Positions 57,756-64,000 of a DNA stretch of 64,000 bases are shown one piece after another (the stretch's first letter is position 1; each line of letters starts with the position of its first letter). Location: the NCBI GenBank assembly GCA_026393755.1, contig JAPKZO010000039.1, positions 134,096-198,095 of the forward strand. The letters are read 5' to 3'. The translations under genes and the position numbers were made by a program. This stretch comes from Acidobacteriota bacterium (GTDB lineage Bacteria; Acidobacteriota; Vicinamibacteria; Vicinamibacterales; JAKQTR01). Under the pieces are notes generated by a model, which saw nothing but the letters and a program-made list of their open reading frames with translations, made no database searches and was not told the origin of the DNA.

Positions 57756-59513
57756 CTACTTCTTCCTTCGGGCCGTCACGGGGCCGGCCGGCGTTTGCAG
57801 CACGAGTACGGTTTCGCCAACGGTCGTCGCAAATGAGAGCGCCTGCTCGGCGCCACCCATTTCAAGCGAATAGACCACAAAGCGCCGGTTCGACACGGGC
57901 AGGTAGCGCAGTGCGGGGAGTTGCGGCATGCCGAGGATTCCCAGCAGACGCCGCGGCCCCCATACGTAGATGTTGAACACTGAGGCCTTCTCGAAATCGA
58001 GACGCACGATGGTCTGGACCGTGTCGCCTCCTCGGGGAACCGTCCCCAGCACGGCCGATTTGACGAACCTCCCGAGCCGTTGTTCGCGGTCGCGCATCAT
58101 CCCGGCTTCCTGCGTCTTGACGTCTTCGAGCGTTCTCTCACCGCCCATGGCCTCGCGCAAGCCCGAGCGATCTCCCTTGAACGAGCGCGATGAGATGTCG
58201 GCGGTTCTGGAGGTCAACTGGGCAAACCGCTCAGCCTGCCCCGCCGGCGGCGAAACGAGCGCCGCCATGGCTTCCTGATCATCGGCGCGGACGGCGAGTG
58301 CGTTGCCGTCGGCGGCGATCGCGATCGCGCCGCCCCCGGGCAGCGTCCAGCGGCCGGCGAGCGGCGCCAGCGTCTCGGGTGTGACGGTGACGACAACCGG
58401 TGGCATCGCCACCGCTCCGCCGAATAGAATCCGATCGAGGACCTGCACGACAGGGCTGGCCTTCATCTCCGCGTTGGTTGACGTCAGGAAGAGCATCGCG
58501 TCTTCGTCGGGGAACCGGAGGAACTCGGCCACATAGACGCCGTTCCCGCCGTTGTGTTGAACGACAGTCGTTCCCCGCACGGTCTTGCCGACAGCCCAGC
58601 CGTAGGCATAGAACGAGCGTGCGGCGGGTCCCTCGGCAACGTATGGCTTGACGTACTTTGCCCGCGCCTCCTTCGACAGGACCGCATCGCTGTTGAGCGC
58701 GCGGTGCCACGCCAGCATGTCGTCCAGCGTCGTGTGCAATCCGCCATTGCCGCGCAGCATCCAGTAGGGCGCCTCCGGCGGCTCGATGCGCTTGAGGATG
58801 GTGCCCCAGTCCTGGCCGTCGCGGTACCCGTGCGCAATGCGTGATGCCGCCCACGCTGGAGCTTTGTAGCCCGTCTCGAGCATGCCCGCCGGCTTCAGCA
58901 CGTGCTCGATCAGGTACGTCTCGTAGGACGTGCCGGACACCTTCTCCACGATCGCGGCCAGCAGGCTGTAACCGGCGTTCGAGTATTCGTAGCCACTGCC
59001 GGGCGGGAAGAGCAGCGTCGACTGCAGTGCGCGCCGCACGTATTCCTCACGCCCGACCGGCTCATAGTCGGTCGGACTGAAGTCCGATTCAAGGCCCGAT
59101 GAATGGGTCAGCAGATGATGCAGGGTGATGGCGGCCTTGTCGGCAGGCACGCCGTCGAGGTACTTGCTGGCCAGGTCGGTGACGGCGAGTCTTCCCTGCA
59201 TCTCAAGGGTGAGGATGGCGGCCGCCGTGAACTGCTTGGTGATGGAGCCCAGGTTGTACACGCTGGCGGTGGTCAGAGGAATGTTCCGCGCCCTATCGGC
59301 CAGGCCGTACGACTTCTTCAACAAGACGTCTTTGCCGCGAACCGCGAGCGCGCCGCCAGAAAAACCGAACCGTTCGAGCCGGGTCAGGTACTCGTCGAGC
59401 CGCTTGCCGACCTCGCCGCTCACGATAGGCCGGTCGTCGGCCAAAGCGGGGCCGGCGGCGGAGGCCAGAACCACGAGCATCGTCGCGAACAGAGATCGCA
59501 CGAATCGGCGCAT
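57756..59513 (-). CDS. Serine hydrolase of the beta-lactamase/PBP4* family
   Basis: ATG at 59513 gives the signal peptide MRRFVRSLFATMLVVLASAAGPALA. The SxxK motif LGSITKQF and a YSN motif (YEYSNAGY) are present, followed by an extra C-terminal domain of about 200 aa. Confidence 0.85.
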   Translation of the reverse strand: MRRFVRSLFATMLVVLASAAGPALADDRPIVSGEVGKRLDEYLTRLERFGFSGGALAVRGKDVLLKKSYGLADRARNIPLTTASVYNLGSITKQFTAAAILTLEMQGRLAVTDLASKYLDGVPADKAAITLHHLLTHSSGLESDFSPTDYEPVGREEYVRRALQSTLLFPPGSGYEYSNAGYSLLAAIVEKVSGTSYETYLIEHVLKPAGMLETGYKAPAWAASRIAHGYRDGQDWGTILKRIEPPEAPYWMLRGNGGLHTTLDDMLAWHRALNSDAVLSKEARAKYVKPYVAEGPAARSFYAYGWAVGKTVRGTTVVQHNGGNGVYVAEFLRFPDEDAMLFLTSTNAEMKASPVVQVLDRILFGGAVAMPPVVVTVTPETLAPLAGRWTLPGGGAIAIAADGNALAVRADDQEAMAALVSPPAGQAERFAQLTSRTADISSRSFKGDRSGLREAMGGERTLEDVKTQEAGMMRDREQRLGRFVKSAVLGTVPRGGDTVQTIVRLDFEKASVFNIYVWGPRRLLGILGMPQLPALRYLPVSNRRFVVYSLEMGGAEQALSFATTVGETVLVLQTPAGPVTARRKK

Positions 59514-59693
59514 GAACACCTCCACAATCTGAAACCCAGCATATCCCAGGGAAGTAGACGCGCTGCGGCCGGCGCCGGTTCGGTATGCAGGACAATCGCG
59601 CCGTCGGCCTCGTCCTACGCCAAACACGGACTGCGGTCGATGTTGTCGTGGAATTGTCTACAGTAGCAGCTTCGTCGAGCCGAAACATGAAGA

Positions 59694-60476
59694 ATGCAGG
59701 GACCGGCCCGCTTCGCACGGTGGATGAACGACCATCAACACAAGGATCGGAAGACCGGTCGTGTGTACCGCTACCACTCCCGGAGCGACGCCCATTCAAT
59801 TGCACTCTGCGAGGAAATCCTCAAGGACCTGCTCGACACTTCTCCCACTCTGCGCAAGCACGCCGCACTTGGAATCCTGTCGTACGAGATCAACTGCAGG
59901 TTCACGTGGCCGTCATCTGGCAAGACGAAGACGCTTGACCTCGCAATCGGAACGGCCCAAGATCCGCTTCCGCCGGCCGGTGGGGCACTAATCCGTCAGG
60001 GTGCCATCGCGGATGTCTTGATAGCCTGTGAGGCCAAGACGGTGATGACCGAGCACGGGAAATCCAAGCCTCGTGTGTACGACGAATTGAGCTCATCCCA
60101 CGAAATCGTCCACCAGGGTCGGCCCGATGCCATCGCAGCTGGAATCACCGTCGTCAATATCGCCTGGACCTTCGTCTCTCCGTTGCGCCGACAACCAGGT
60201 CAGGGAATATACGTTTCTGATCACAAGCAGCCTGAGGCGGCCGCTGGAATGCTCCTGCATTTGAGAGGATTGCCGATTCGGGACGAGGTCGGCAAGGTCG
60301 GATTTGATGCCTACGCTTCCGTCGTGATCGACTGCGACAACGTCACGAAAGTCAAGCTATGGACTGACCCACCCGCGCCACAGCCCGGCGACAGGGACCA
60401 CTACGCTACGTTCATCACTCGGATAAGCCGCTTCTACGACGAACGCTTCTCGACGCTGCCTGCGCGCCGGTACTAG
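59694..60476 (+). CDS. Hypothetical protein with a PD-(D/E)xK-like motif; candidate restriction endonuclease
   Basis: 260-aa ORF in a lower-GC segment. TLDLAIG ... (30 aa) ... LIACEAKTV fits a D-(x)n-ExK nuclease core. It is convergent with, and overlaps the 3' end of, a DNA methyltransferase. No family was recognised. ATG 59724 is an alternative start. Confidence 0.5.
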   Translation: MQGPARFARWMNDHQHKDRKTGRVYRYHSRSDAHSIALCEEILKDLLDTSPTLRKHAALGILSYEINCRFTWPSSGKTKTLDLAIGTAQDPLPPAGGALIRQGAIADVLIACEAKTVMTEHGKSKPRVYDELSSSHEIVHQGRPDAIAAGITVVNIAWTFVSPLRRQPGQGIYVSDHKQPEAAAGMLLHLRGLPIRDEVGKVGFDAYASVVIDCDNVTKVKLWTDPPAPQPGDRDHYATFITRISRFYDERFSTLPARRY

Positions 60477-61584
60477 GGCGCGGCCCCTGAGGTCTCGTCG
60501 TTCCCTTCTGTGTCCTGCTTTGACCGGACTCACTTCTGGCAGACTCAGAAGCGCTCGCTGGATGAAAACTGAAGTGTGCCCGCGAGAAGAAGTTGCTCTG
60601 CGATTCTGCAAGTCGGCTCTTCAGAAACTTGAAATACTCAGCATCCAGCTCAACCGATATGCTGTTACGTCCAGACTTGGATGCGGCCAGCGTTGTCGAG
60701 CCTGTGCCTCCAAATGGATCCAAGACGGTATCGCCGACGAAACTGAACATCCGAATGAGGCGTTCCGCGAGCTCTACTGGATAGGGAGCCGGGTGGTCCT
60801 TGGTTGACGCCCCTGTCAGTCCAGACCAGATCTGCTGAAACCACACGCGGTGATCTTCTGCAGAAATCACGCTCAAGATCCGGGCGGCGAGGGAGGGGGT
60901 TCTGTATCCACTAGCCTTGCGCTGCATCAGAATGAATTCGATGTCGTTCTTGATGACAGCATTCGGTTCGTAGGGTTTGCCAAGGAACCCTCCGCCACCT
61001 TCCACCTCGTACACCGCATTTGAGATTTTGTGCCAGATAATCGGCGCCAGATTGTCAAAACCGATCGCCCTGCACTGCTCTTGGATTGAAGCGTGCAAGG
61101 GAACCACCATGTGGCGTCCGCCATTCCGCTTGCGGGAAAGGCACACGTCACCGACGACGACTATGAGCCGGCCTCCCGGCACAAGCACTCGGAAACAATG
61201 TCGCCAGACCTTGCCGAGTTCCGTCAGAAACTCCTCATAGTCCTCGACGTGCCCGAGTTGACCCTCAGTATCGCGGTATTTCTTAAGCGTCCAGTATGGT
61301 GGTGACGTGACGACGAGATGAAGGCTCTCATCGGGTAAGAAGTCCAACGACCGAGAATCGTGGCAGTACAACGAATGGTGAGTGGGAATATCTCGGAGCC
61401 TGGAGTGGATCAGCCCGGTGAGTTTGGGATCTCGGGCGATCCTGGGAATGCCAGTCTTGTCGTTCTCCAGCGAGCCGATCTCTGGCGGGAGGAACGCATC
61501 GAGATCCGGCGCGAGTTGAGACGACGCGTCAGGGGTTTTCATCTTGGCTCTGCTAATCCTAACATCGTCCGCAAATGCGCGCAC
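60415..61584 (-). CDS. Beta-class N4-cytosine/N6-adenine DNA methyltransferase (N6_N4_Mtase family)
   Basis: Motif IV VVTSPPYW precedes motif I LDPFGGTGST (beta-class order). HPAPYPVELAERLI is also present. The ORF-track start at 61584 is a GTG, and ATG 61542 (MKTPDAS) is the alternative. The last 55 aa or so are low-complexity and overlap the neighbouring ORF. Confidence 0.9.
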   Translation of the reverse strand: MRAFADDVRISRAKMKTPDASSQLAPDLDAFLPPEIGSLENDKTGIPRIARDPKLTGLIHSRLRDIPTHHSLYCHDSRSLDFLPDESLHLVVTSPPYWTLKKYRDTEGQLGHVEDYEEFLTELGKVWRHCFRVLVPGGRLIVVVGDVCLSRKRNGGRHMVVPLHASIQEQCRAIGFDNLAPIIWHKISNAVYEVEGGGGFLGKPYEPNAVIKNDIEFILMQRKASGYRTPSLAARILSVISAEDHRVWFQQIWSGLTGASTKDHPAPYPVELAERLIRMFSFVGDTVLDPFGGTGSTTLAASKSGRNSISVELDAEYFKFLKSRLAESQSNFFSRAHFSFHPASASESARSESGQSRTQKGTTRPQGPRPSTGAQAASRSVRRRSGLSE

Positions 61585-61669
61585 GGACCTCGAATGGTCC
61601 CCTGAACAGCATCGTCATGTCGTCGTGCTCTGTGCCTCATCTCACACCGGACAGGCACTCTGTCGCCGG

Positions 61670-61735
61670 GTCCGAAGACCCGGCCAGGCCGCACCGCCTC
61701 GGCCTCAATCTCGCGACGCGTCCGAAGACCCGGCC
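61670..61735. repeat. 16-nt direct repeat GTCCGAAGACCCGGCC x2 (50-nt period); the first copy sits in the hairpin GCCGGGTC-cgaa-GACCCGGC
   Basis: Read directly at 61670-61685 and 61720-61735, in the non-coding stretch between the methyltransferase and the transposase remnant. Confidence 0.4.
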
Positions 61736-61846
61736 TTCAACGCTAGAGGCCCAGCCCGCCGATGCGTGCTGTCGGCCAATGTGTGACCCCGCTGTCTGGT
61801 TGTCCCGTCATTCATGCCAACCGCCGGTAGTTGTCAAAGTTGACCG

Positions 61847-62065
61847 ATGCGGCGGTTCACGTGCCTGACGAACGGATTTTCGAAGAAGGTCGAGAACCAC
61901 ATCTCGGCCGTGGCGCTTTACTTCATGTATTACAACTTCGCCCCAGTGCATCAGACGCTCCGCGTGACCCCCGCGATGGAGGCCGGTCTGGCGGACCACC
62001 TGTGGAGCCTCGGGGACACATTGCGCTTACTGGACGGGCAACAGGAGTTGGATACCCATCGTTGA
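61847..62065 (+). pseudogene. C-terminal remnant of an IS1/IS1595-like DDE transposase
   Basis: The 72-aa ORF MRRFTCLTNGFSKKVENHISAVALYFMYYNFAPVHQTLRVTPAMEAGLADHLWSL matches the conserved C-terminal tail (MRRFTRLTNAFSKK.ENH...HFMYYNF.R.HQTLRVTPAM.AG) of this transposase group. A stop codon lies immediately upstream, and no catalytic domain is present. Confidence 0.6.
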
Positions 62066-62283
62066 GCGCCCTGCGCCTGGATGTGCCGTGACGAGTAATT
62101 AGCCTCCGTCAGGAATCCCAGGCCTAAGCTAACGGAATACACCGCCGCGCAGAACAGGACAAAGCACAGCAACATATGGCCGACAATTCCAACGGTCCGT
62201 TCTTGATCGAGAGCCCGGCCGAGCGCAAAGAAAGAGAATAGGCCGAAGAAACACGACGCGAAAACAGACAGCGCAAGATCCAG

Positions 62284-63111
62284 TTGTGGTTCAACGGACT
62301 TTTGATGGTCGCGACCGTTCTGACGGCCGGGATTGTTCTGCGTCAGAACATGATTCTCGACGCGTCTCTTGCCGAGATGAGAAAGCAATCCGTCGCGGCC
62401 CAGGCCTCTGTGGGAGCCGCCCAAGATGCGGCTCGGGCCGCAAAGAATAGCGCTGCCTTGGCTGAAAGGCAGGTCGAATACGGCGCCATCGAAGCAAACG
62501 CCGCCAAGACTCAAGTCGCGCTCACTGAAGATTCGCTCCGAGCGAGATTGGCTATCACAAAGTACGAACTGCAACCGTTGGTGATCGGTGAACGCCCGAG
62601 ACTTCAGGTCGAAGTAGAGAATGTCGGCCATTCGGCTGCGATAGATCAACGGAGCGCCTTCTTCTCCATGCGCCTTCCGGCGCTCCTGATGTCGGACATT
62701 GGCAAGAAGCCGCACAGCGAGATCATGGCTGGAATCCGGGCAGAACCCTGGTTCCTGTACATCGTTACGCGCCCGAAGACCCTGAACGACCTGCAACTCG
62801 CTCAACTGCCCTATTTGCCACCGAATGCTGAGTTCAGCCTTCCCGAAAGGACGGAGGCGGGCGGTCTGGAGCCCGGCGCAAAATCCATCCACATGTCTCT
62901 GTATGCTAAACCCTTGACGGAGGGCTTGTTGAAAGAGATACAGGACAACGCAAGGCGGCCGGTGTTCTTTGGCCACTTCAGCTACGCCAGTTTTGGCAAA
63001 CGCCATGTGACGAGATTCTGTGCGTACACTTTGCCGCCAGGTGGAGAGATCGCAACATTGTCTGGACAGCCATTGATTGCCTGTGGCGGCAAGTGGAACC
63101 TCTCCGAATAG
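62284..63111 (+). CDS. Hypothetical N-terminally anchored protein with a coiled-coil segment (possibly a pseudogene, see the in-frame TAG at 62239)
   Basis: Protein-like composition: a TM helix LWFNGLLMVATVLTAGIVL, an Ala/Gln-rich helix, then a globular part. A TTG (62284) or ATG (62305) start is possible. An in-frame ATG at 62176 is separated from this ORF only by one TAG. Confidence 0.55.
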   Translation: MWFNGLLMVATVLTAGIVLRQNMILDASLAEMRKQSVAAQASVGAAQDAARAAKNSAALAERQVEYGAIEANAAKTQVALTEDSLRARLAITKYELQPLVIGERPRLQVEVENVGHSAAIDQRSAFFSMRLPALLMSDIGKKPHSEIMAGIRAEPWFLYIVTRPKTLNDLQLAQLPYLPPNAEFSLPERTEAGGLEPGAKSIHMSLYAKPLTEGLLKEIQDNARRPVFFGHFSYASFGKRHVTRFCAYTLPPGGEIATLSGQPLIACGGKWNLSE

Positions 63112-63353
63112 AAAGACCGCCAAGCAAAAGAGTAGGCCGCGACAAGCCTTCGGCCAAACCTGACCACTACCCAACCGCAGGAATCCAGCCGCGGCAGCAT
63201 CAGCTGTGATAGCCTCTCTCAAACACCGGGGCTTATTGTGTGCCCGCGCAGGTTTCCCCGCTTGCCGCGCCACACTTCTGCCTGCAGCACCCCGCTTTCT
63301 CATGGTCTGACGGCGCAGGGTCCTGCCCACCATTTTTCCATCAGGAGGACGCA

Positions 63354-64000
63354 GTGCGGATTACAGCAGGACGCGTCGGTCGAGCCACGGCTCGCGCGGC
63401 GACGCTGGCGGCCATCATCGGATGGCTGGCTGTCGCGCCGACCGGGGCCGCCGACACCACGAAGTACCACACTCACGCGGAGCTCTCTGCGGCGTTGAAG
63501 GCCGCGGCCGCCGCGCATCCGAATCTGGCGACGCTGGTGTCGATTGGCAAGTCGGCCGAAGGTCGAGACATCTGGGCGATCGAGATCGCCAATCAGTCAG
63601 GCACACCCGTCGACCAGCGGCCCGGCCTGCTCATCGCGGCCAACTTCGAAGGCGATCACCTGATCGGCAGCGAGCTGGCCGTCTACCTGGCCGACTATCT
63701 GCTCACCTCGTACGCCACGGACGCCGTCGTCAAGCAGCGTCTCGACAACCACGTCTTCTACATCGTGCCGCGCGTCAATCCTGACGGCGCCGAGCTGATG
63801 TTCGCGCCGGTCAAGACCGGCCGCCGCACCAACGGCACGAAGTTCGACGCCGACAACGACGGCCGGATCGACGAGGATGGGCCGGAGGATCTCAACAAGG
63901 ACGGTTTCATCACCGTGATGCGCGTCAAGGACCCGAAGGGTCCGTACATGGTTCATCCCGATGATGCCCGGCTGATGAAGCGCGCTGATCCAGCCAAGGG
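63354..64000 (+). CDS. M14-family zinc carboxypeptidase, 5' part (runs off the window); absent from the ORF track
   Basis: Manual translation from GTG 63354 (RBS AGGAGG at 63343): VRITAGRVGRATARAATLAAIIGWLAVAPTGAADTTKYHTHAELSAALKAAAAAHPNLATLVSIGKSAEGRDIWAIEIAN...FEGDHLIGSE...YIVPRVNPDGAE. This is the M14 N-terminal pattern, and the frame stays open to 64000. Confidence 0.8.
   Translation, partial: MRITAGRVGRATARAATLAAIIGWLAVAPTGAADTTKYHTHAELSAALKAAAAAHPNLATLVSIGKSAEGRDIWAIEIANQSGTPVDQRPGLLIAANFEGDHLIGSELAVYLADYLLTSYATDAVVKQRLDNHVFYIVPRVNPDGAELMFAPVKTGRRTNGTKFDADNDGRIDEDGPEDLNKDGFITVMRVKDPKGPYMVHPDDARLMKRADPAK

Follow-up and report, generated by a model that had tools for sequence, protein, structure and literature searches.

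A probable two-gene Type II restriction-modification cassette within a composite foreign island of an acidobacterial genome

In the 64,000-nucleotide stretch of acidobacterial DNA analysed here (contig JAPKZO010000039.1 of assembly GCA_026393755.1; the whole stretch is called the window), the segment between 59.64 and 61.59 kb is best read as a horizontally acquired, orthodox two-gene Type II restriction-modification (R-M) cassette, a reading to which we assign a probability of roughly 0.85. The cassette consists of two convergent open reading frames (ORFs), a candidate restriction endonuclease, ORF A, and a beta-class DNA methyltransferase, ORF B, and this pair is kept together across bacterial phyla and in archaea. 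It occupies one part of a compositionally foreign island at 59.6-63.2 kb, which is a composite of two independent events, namely the R-M cassette and a separate insert with a fragment of an IS1-family insertion sequence and an orphan frame, ORF D. The parts of the cassette to which the argument refers are as follows, in the coordinates of the window.

59638-61593, no strand: the R-M cassette as the unit of comparison, with 89% DNA identity to the cassette of locus L093 and a G+C content (GC) of 0.573
59694-60476, plus strand: ORF A, 260 aa, candidate Type II restriction endonuclease of the PD-(D/E)XK type, from homologues, motif, structural model and linkage
59826-59828, plus strand: D45 of ORF A, which sits on the first core helix
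59937-59939, plus strand: D82 of ORF A, putative catalytic residue
60030-60032, plus strand: E113 of ORF A, putative catalytic residue
60036-60038, plus strand: K115 of ORF A, putative catalytic residue
60415-61542, minus strand: ORF B, 375 aa from the ATG at 61542, beta-class DNA amino-methyltransferase, from PF01555 and motif order
60415-61584, minus strand: maximal frame of ORF B, from the GTG at 61584
61294-61305, minus strand: motif IV of ORF B, SPPY, at aa 80
60697-60714, minus strand: motif I of ORF B, FGGTGS, at aa 277
60415-60476, no strand: overlap of 62 nt between the 3' ends of the convergent ORFs A and B, from the ORF coordinates

ORF A belongs to a large family without a functional name. 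An index of 5.8 billion proteins holds 877 matching proteins, every one of them called "hypothetical" at its source, and an exhaustive HMMER scan of 1.84 billion representatives resolves the family into 494 clusters at 50% identity, mainly from metagenome-assembled genomes (MAGs) of Planctomycetota, Acidobacteriota and Chloroflexota. The frame in the window is of full length, its start agreeing with the consensus of the homologues and both its start and its end lying where the family consensus has them. Its motif reads D82...E113-A-K115; the three residues are invariant across 63 close homologues, and ORF A retains every residue that is invariant in that set. Among 70 diverse members, the most distant of which are 28% identical, D82 is present in 67, an E or D at position 113 in 68, and K115 and D45 in 69 each.

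A structural model of ORF A, built by AlphaFold2 (AF2) with the alignment of 63 sequences, has a predicted local distance difference test (pLDDT) value of 93.2 and a predicted template modelling score of 0.91. It runs through a helix (residues 33-58), three strands (62-71, 78-88 with D82, and 105-117 with E113 and K115), a second helix (124-142) and a further strand (147-155), an alpha-beta-beta-beta-alpha-beta core with D82 on the second core strand and E113 and K115 on the third. As modelled, the core has the canonical PD-(D/E)XK arrangement, and each motif residue falls on the strand where it is expected. Comparison with the PDB by Foldseek returns matches that are weak, the best being BbvCI B2 (6M9G; E 2.2e-3), followed by NucC, TT1808, the BspD6I small subunit, SgrAI, BstEII, Can2, PaqCI and Cas4, at template modelling (TM) scores of 0.2-0.38, E values of 2e-3 to 0.3 and 10-15% identity; in BFVD a cyanophage protein that carries the annotation 'Restriction endonuclease' comes first (E 1.4e-5, TM 0.34/0.44). 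Nearly all the leading matches are PD-(D/E)XK nucleases, which supports the fold class of the modelled protein and not any particular family. ORF A shares with BbvCI B2, NucC (6UXG, 7ZGW), the BspD6I small subunit (2P14), SgrAI and BstEII a core that has an acidic residue and an ExK on adjacent strands; at the level of a predicted structure, these marginal likenesses would give neither a family assignment nor a guide to specificity. ORF A has around it neither the context of a CRISPR (clustered regularly interspaced short palindromic repeats) system nor that of a cyclic-oligonucleotide-based anti-phage signalling system (CBASS).

Sequence libraries, by contrast with the protein index, are silent on this family. 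ORF A has no match in Pfam, NCBIfam or PADLOC (E <= 0.1) or among PDB sequences; in PHROGs there is a single match at chance level (E 0.072), to a family of unknown function; its profile finds nothing better than E 0.74 among PDB sequences; and a Pfam scan of the 70 diverse members (E <= 5) gives no consistent match. To the solved restriction enzymes and the restriction-enzyme families of Pfam, ORF A thus shows no detectable sequence similarity. We take it to be a probable Type II restriction endonuclease of a PD-(D/E)XK family that lies outside Pfam, NCBIfam, PADLOC and PHROGs, its nuclease activity being deduced from motif and model. A sequence-only reading of this DNA had already picked out a 260-aa frame with a D...ExK motif, which is indeed present and conserved, and had held that the nuclease matches nothing that can be named; this remains so for the curated libraries and no longer so otherwise, since the protein has a large family and an ordinary PD-(D/E)XK core.

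The second frame of the cassette is more readily placed. ORF B, for which the ATG at 61542 is the likely start and the one also used in L093, matches PF01555 (N6_N4_Mtase) at 2.2e-36 (126.3 bits against a cut-off of 26.7) and the PADLOC model MTase_II at 5.7e-57, in agreement with the earlier description of a convergent beta-class SPPY methyltransferase. Its closest solved relative is TTHA0409 of Thermus thermophilus HB8 (PDB 2ZIE, 2e-106 over 263 residues), and the next best, 8S9N (6.8e-14) and M.PvuII (3.6e-12), are annotated as cytosine-N4 enzymes. Motifs I and IV are both intact, and the order in which they stand, with SPPY at aa 80 on the N-terminal side of FGGTGS at aa 277, assigns the enzyme to the beta class. 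By the usual motif rule an SPPY in a methyltransferase points to N4-cytosine methylation, and ORF B is probably N4-cytosine specific; that the A family is paired elsewhere with a 5-methylcytosine (m5C) enzyme is compatible with a cytosine in the site.

An argument for joining the two frames into one system comes from their linkage. Three homologues of ORF A in unrelated neighbourhoods each have a convergent PF01555 gene directly downstream. A survey with one genome per GTDB species, in which neighbours were identified by tblastn, returned 80 loci, whose hosts include Acidobacteriota, Planctomycetota, Chloroflexota, Armatimonadota, Bacillota, Elusimicrobia, Zixiibacteriota, Binatia and Actinomycetes, as well as deltaproteobacterial MAGs, a MAG labelled Leptolyngbya and two archaeal MAGs of the Methanoregulaceae (Methanoregula). 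A good number of the host MAGs look like assemblies of long reads, among them the multi-megabase MFD contigs of L031, L032, L034, L039 and L072. A B-type methyltransferase, 51-73% identical, adjoins the A homologue in 76 of the 80. The two genes stand tail to tail, as in the window, in 60 of these 76, are co-directional with A first in 2, and have the methyltransferase first in the other 14, all of which belong to a divergent subfamily with 35-40% identity to ORF A. Small gaps or overlaps recur in the tail-to-tail loci, which make up 60 of the 80. Where no B-type neighbour is seen (four loci), the contig ends just after A in three, so that a DNA methyltransferase adjoins the A homologue in all 77 loci with room for one on the contig, 76 of them B-type and one gamma-class. 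ORFs A and B form a conserved cassette that is co-inherited.

The partner is not always of the same kind. The gamma-class case, in an Acidimicrobiales MAG (locus L082, 1992-4693), is a 634-aa N6-adenine methyltransferase (Eco57I/N6_Mtase/TaqI_C) directly upstream of A, and on plasmids of Sinorhizobium and Rhizobium (L008, 5019-7390; L009, 5001-7390) A homologues of 37-38% identity are convergent with vsr-dcm, that is, with an m5C enzyme. The A family therefore always lies beside a methyltransferase and yet does so with three unrelated classes, which is the pattern of a restriction endonuclease that needs its site protected and not that of a protein that needs a specific protein partner. The suggestion that the first two genes of the island are a Type II R-M pair, made earlier from the letters of the sequence, is supported here by much stronger evidence than those letters could offer.

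In this context it might be asked whether ORF A is instead a methyltransferase-associated PD-(D/E)XK protein without a function in restriction, for instance a nickase that acts on mismatches or in repair, a nuclease that depends on methylation, or a regulator of the methyltransferase that binds DNA and has no nuclease activity. Such a protein would be consistent with the presence of the non-restriction proteins NucC, Can2 and Cas4 among the weak fold matches, with an A-family nuclease activity that is deduced, and with the solitary B-type methyltransferases of Thermus. Each variant, however, meets its own difficulty: the retention of the D...(E/D)xK triad in nearly all of the 70 diverse members argues against a dead protein, the rhizobial loci carry a dedicated Vsr repair nuclease besides A, and a methylation-dependent nuclease beside its cognate methylase would be suicidal, while strict adjacency to three methyltransferase chemistries fits protection of a shared site and not partnership with one particular protein. 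We regard this explanation as unlikely and retain that of a restriction endonuclease.

Among the family there are irregular members. Longer proteins with an A-like domain (P0181, P0248, P0196 and others) were considered as fusions of methyltransferase and nuclease and were rejected; they contain no methyltransferase domain and are probably chimeras of gene calling. In six loci (L057, L064, L065, L069, L072 and L076) the A homologue aligns piecewise or is truncated beside a methyltransferase that looks intact, which could reflect decay of the nuclease or, equally, indel errors of assembly or sequencing. The rhizobial A homologues are annotated 'hypothetical protein', and among their neighbours in L008 and L009 are genes labelled 'mobile mystery protein A/B', a SIR2 family protein, a DUF2726 protein and a VapBC pair; it may be that this part of the symbiosis plasmids is mobile or rich in defence genes.

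In its layout the cassette resembles the orthodox Type II (IIP-like) systems PvuII and BamHI, in which a PD-(D/E)XK endonuclease is combined with a beta-class N4-cytosine methyltransferase. As in these systems there are two separate, adjacent genes, a single-domain nuclease of about 260 aa with a D...(D/E)xK motif, and a beta-class methyltransferase (for ORF B the match to M.PvuII cited above) in which an SPPY/F motif IV precedes motif I; in common with cassettes of this type, that of ORFs A and B is mobile, low in GC and patchy in its distribution. Unlike PvuII and BamHI, which have a controller gene, the cassette is without one.

If this likeness extends to function, ORF B, in a reaction dependent on S-adenosylmethionine, would mark a short specific sequence in the host chromosome, likely as N4-methylcytosine, and ORF A, dependent on Mg2+ and with D82, E113 and K115 as its catalytic residues, would cleave that sequence wherever methylation is missing from it, for example in phage or plasmid DNA entering the cell, which would give the cassette its role in defence. 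By analogy, ORF A would probably act as a homodimer on a palindromic site. There being no gene for a controller (C) protein in the cassette, any control over the relative timing of restriction and modification would have to come from promoter strength or from convergent transcription. If the expression of the two genes is coupled at all, which is speculative, the 62-nt overlap at their 3' ends is the one obvious feature through which it might be.

The comparison with TTHA0409 (PDB 2ZIE/2ZIF/2ZIG) bears on the modification half. ORF B shares with it the beta class and the same SPPY and FxGxG motifs, and enzymes of that class have been described as dimeric (PMC7544214, PMC10406627). Unlike TTHA0409, ORF B has an extra C-terminal tail of 45-55 residues, which overlaps ORF A, and it is one half of a two-gene cassette, whereas the orthologue in Thermus igniterrae (84% identical to TTHA0409) is solitary. 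In T. igniterrae and on a metagenome contig (L156/L157, 4001-4870) the first 4 nt of the methylase gene are shared with the end of a pseudouridine synthase gene, the other neighbours are likewise housekeeping genes (ruvB, panB and an aminotransferase), and a six-frame profile search detected no A-family sequence near the T. igniterrae methylase. Orthologues of TTHA0409 at 78-100% identity occur in many named Thermus species, which suggests that in Thermus this enzyme is a domesticated orphan methyltransferase.

Several observations weigh against the interpretation as an R-M cassette, or at least leave it short of a complete account. The nuclease role of the A family is drawn from sequence and model, with no curated family or solved structure that matches by sequence, and the structural matches of ORF A are weak (best PDB E 2.2e-3, TM 0.2-0.38). 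The solitary state of the Thermus orthologue examined means that B-type enzymes can work without A. N4-cytosine methylation by ORF B is read from a single motif rule, that for SPPY, and TTHA0409 is itself labelled a 'putative' methylase; the literature retrieved on this protein and on Thermus methylomes gives structural comparisons and no recognition sequence. Nor does site avoidance in the host single out a candidate. Among the palindromes of the window only CTAG (13 against 46 expected) and AAGCTT (2 against 8.9) are clearly depleted; in the pooled host loci (69 and 15) CTCGAG, CAGCTG, AAGCTT and GTCGAC are lowest, in a count with no system-free control set. Hexamer palindromes and CTAG are generally rare in genomes. 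TGNCA is also low across the 64 kb of the window (165 observed, 237 expected), and the scarcity of AAGCTT (the HindIII site), CTAG and TGNCA may be due to other R-M systems of the host or to general biases.

A further hint may be sought in the partners. The mixture of SPPY-type (probably N4-methylcytosine), m5C and N6-methyladenine enzymes suggests, on the assumption that specificity is shared family-wide, a recognition site that contains both C and A. The gamma-class enzyme of L082 is nearest to M.BseCI (ATCGAT; 7e-18) and then to M.TaqI (1e-6); a transfer of specificity from this partner was considered and set aside, the distance being too great for more than a weak lead, and the natural swap of methyltransferase at this locus could help to pin down the site.

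Restriction enzymes are notoriously diverse, and another uncurated PD-(D/E)XK family beside a methyltransferase will not surprise specialists; the biology, a mobile Type II R-M cassette carried by an acidobacterium, is ordinary. What merits attention is its annotation. Pfam, NCBIfam, PADLOC and PHROGs give the nuclease no function and PADLOC recognised the methyltransferase alone, so that for pipelines built on these libraries the methyltransferase would probably stand alone, both here and in hundreds of environmental genomes, and the number of complete R-M systems would come out too low. This gap would be closed by a profile made from alignments of the A family; the characterisation of one member, besides adding a family of restriction enzymes, would establish what the TTHA0409-like methyltransferases recognise. 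We consider it possible, if on balance doubtful, that the ORF A family constitutes widespread Type II endonucleases missed by defence pipelines, with a site or a cleavage geometry that may be new among characterised enzymes.

The cassette can be considered together with the chromosomal region in which it is found. The island is bounded by two genes of a different composition.

57756-59513, minus strand: serine hydrolase with a beta-lactamase fold, from Pfam
starting at 63354, plus strand: M14 peptidase, from Pfam

Between them GC falls from about 0.65 to 0.55-0.59. The interval 59628-63353 has a GC of 0.580, against 0.652 in the remainder of the window; no other 3.7-kb segment has a lower value (mean 0.649, standard deviation 0.016), and this one lies about 4 standard deviations below the mean. 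GC at third codon positions (GC3) is 0.70, 0.64 and 0.66 in ORFs A, B and D and 0.82, 0.84 and 0.82 in the serine hydrolase, the upstream gene and the M14 peptidase (range 0.80-0.84). The earlier impression of a lower GC and a different codon usage at 59694-63111, between a serine hydrolase and an M14 peptidase, is borne out in both respects, and the segment at 59.6-63.2 kb is a compositionally foreign island. Several further searches of the island were unrewarding: no transfer RNA was found as an integration target, direct or inverted repeats flanking the island are short matches at chance level, an Rfam scan of the island gave one sub-threshold chance match, and promoter and terminator scans gave counts not above the shuffled expectation.

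Outside this genome, matches at the DNA level draw the limits of the cassette. In genomes other than L093, blastn matches to the window are confined to 59700-61488; the GC of the cassette is below that of its flanks in 70 of 74 loci, on average by 5.2 points; and the distribution of the A family is patchy, extending from Acidobacteriota and Planctomycetota to Methanoregula. By composition and distribution, the cassette at 59.64-61.59 kb appears to be horizontally acquired.

How the island was assembled can be read from the same chromosomal site in relatives, which was located through serine hydrolase orthologues on metagenome contigs and compared by blastn alignment. In the closest relative, L093, whose hydrolase is 84% and M14 peptidase 91% identical, the gene order is M14, ORF B (93%), ORF A (96%), histidine phosphatase and hydrolase, without the IS1 fragment and without ORF D. 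The window from 63181 onward aligns to the M14 flank of L093, and the 1,587 bp at 61594-63180 have no counterpart there, their place being taken by 112 unrelated bases. In L095-L097 the order is M14, histidine phosphatase (174 aa) and hydrolase, a cassette-free site, relative to which L093 has a segment of 2,086 bp in place of 175 bp. Since L093 has the cassette without the IS1 fragment and ORF D, and L095-L097 are free of the cassette, the cassette represents one insertion, common to the window and L093, and the stretch that carries the IS1 fragment and ORF D is a second one, specific to this lineage. The occupied and cassette-free sites together provide a clean example of two independent insertions that might pass for one island.

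Among related Acidobacteria, what lies between the M14 peptidase and the hydrolase (59444-63353 in the window; L093-L125) is variable. In the window this interval holds the R-M cassette together with the IS1 fragment and ORF D, and no histidine phosphatase gene, which has been lost there. In the more distant loci L099, L102, L108 and L122 it is occupied by a gene of roughly 1,690 aa, which in L099 is UvrA-like by Pfam, and in L104 and L107 ORF A again adjoins the hydrolase. The idea that the interval is a defence hotspot was rejected, the other occupants being the UvrA-like gene and the histidine phosphatase.

The comparison with L093 also bears on whether the system in the window is decaying, such that ORF B is active, ORF A is inactive here, and the pair amounts to a de facto orphan methylase for epigenetic marking. 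The endonuclease is often the first half to be lost from R-M systems, throughout the genus Thermus B-type enzymes survive without a partner gene, in a housekeeping operon, and host palindromes are not obviously depleted, all of which such decay would explain. However, ORF A is of full length with ends that match the family consensus, and keeps all the invariant residues of its 63 close homologues; it is, moreover, 96% identical to the L093 copy against 83-88% in the DNA of the flanks, and appears in consequence to be under constraint. We therefore hold a system with an inactive ORF A to be quite improbable, and continue to read the pair as an intact cassette.

The second insert comprises the following features.

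61594-63180, no strand: second insert, 1,587 bp, with two hairpin repeats, the IS1 fragment and ORF D, delimited by the breakpoints between the window and L093; GC 0.584
61656-61685 and 61706-61735, plus strand: two 30-nt direct repeats, 50 nt apart, from a repeat search
61847-62077, plus strand: 3' fragment of an IS1-family transposase gene, from tblastn to QND69621.1
62305-63111, plus strand: ORF D as annotated, 268 aa, an orphan
62284-63111, plus strand: ORF D from a TTG start, 275 aa

The only copies of this insert, 100% identical to it, lie on two short metagenome contigs that come from the same strain, and in comparison with plasmids no DNA match extends beyond the IS1 tail. The fragment corresponds to residues 213-289 of the 294-aa 'IS1 family transposase' QND69621.1 (55% identity, E 2e-25), and the 77 C-terminal transposase residues that it encodes are 55-61% identical to annotated examples; a frame of 72 codons at 61847-62065 resembles the end of an IS1 transposase. 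Unlike full IS1 elements, the window keeps only the last quarter of the transposase gene, no match lies upstream of the fragment, and the 64 kb contain no second copy. To judge from what is left, the fragment is a dead relic and not a mobile element, as had been supposed earlier.

ORF D itself is an orphan. Among 5.8 billion proteins it finds only itself (P0121), and Pfam, NCBIfam, PADLOC, PHROGs and the other libraries scanned contain no family for it, so that the earlier view of a 275-aa frame with no recognisable family stands. It has a hydrophobic N-terminus and a long N-terminal helix; a single-sequence AF2 prediction is unusable (pLDDT 41), the helix at residues 2-68 alone being predicted with some confidence. 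Probably it is a lineage-specific, putative gene, and it may have arrived with the insertion sequence.

The same sequence-only reading had gone further and proposed an undescribed or variant defence module that included this third frame. Set out in full, ORFs A, B and D would form one undescribed multi-gene defence system in which ORF D acts as a membrane-anchored effector or sensor; all three lie within one low-GC stretch, and a protein that matches no known family might, on its sequence, conceivably have a new function. This proposal is contradicted by the distribution of the genes. A and B co-occur in other genomes, and ORF D never accompanies them: no homologue of it is present in any of the 89 loci that carry the A family, the closest relative, L093, has A and B at the same site without it, the dead IS1 fragment stands between it and ORF B, and it is known only from the 100% identical contigs of the same strain. 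We regard a three-gene module as extremely improbable. On these comparisons ORF D would not be part of the R-M system, no functional link between them being seen, and the second insert appears to be separate from the cassette and later than it; the two-gene R-M cassette is the preferred unit.

Some minor features of the insert may be added. A 460-aa antisense frame (61951-63333, minus strand) covers part of the IS1 fragment, where it runs antisense to the recognisable remains of a coding sequence, and all of ORF D, and has no family matches; most likely it is a shadow ORF of GC-rich DNA, and its presence leaves the coding strand of the ORF D region unproven. The GC values of ORF D at the three codon positions (0.60/0.46/0.66) are compatible with coding on the plus strand, but the antisense frame gives the mirror pattern, which keeps them from being decisive. 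When the region of the 30-nt repeats is folded the first hairpin forms, but the region is not more stable than its shuffles (z = -1.3), and their motif is not enriched elsewhere in the window. Both repeats are situated between the methyltransferase start and the IS1 fragment, and the first alone has the full G+C-rich hairpin, CCGGGTC-CGAA-GACCCGG.

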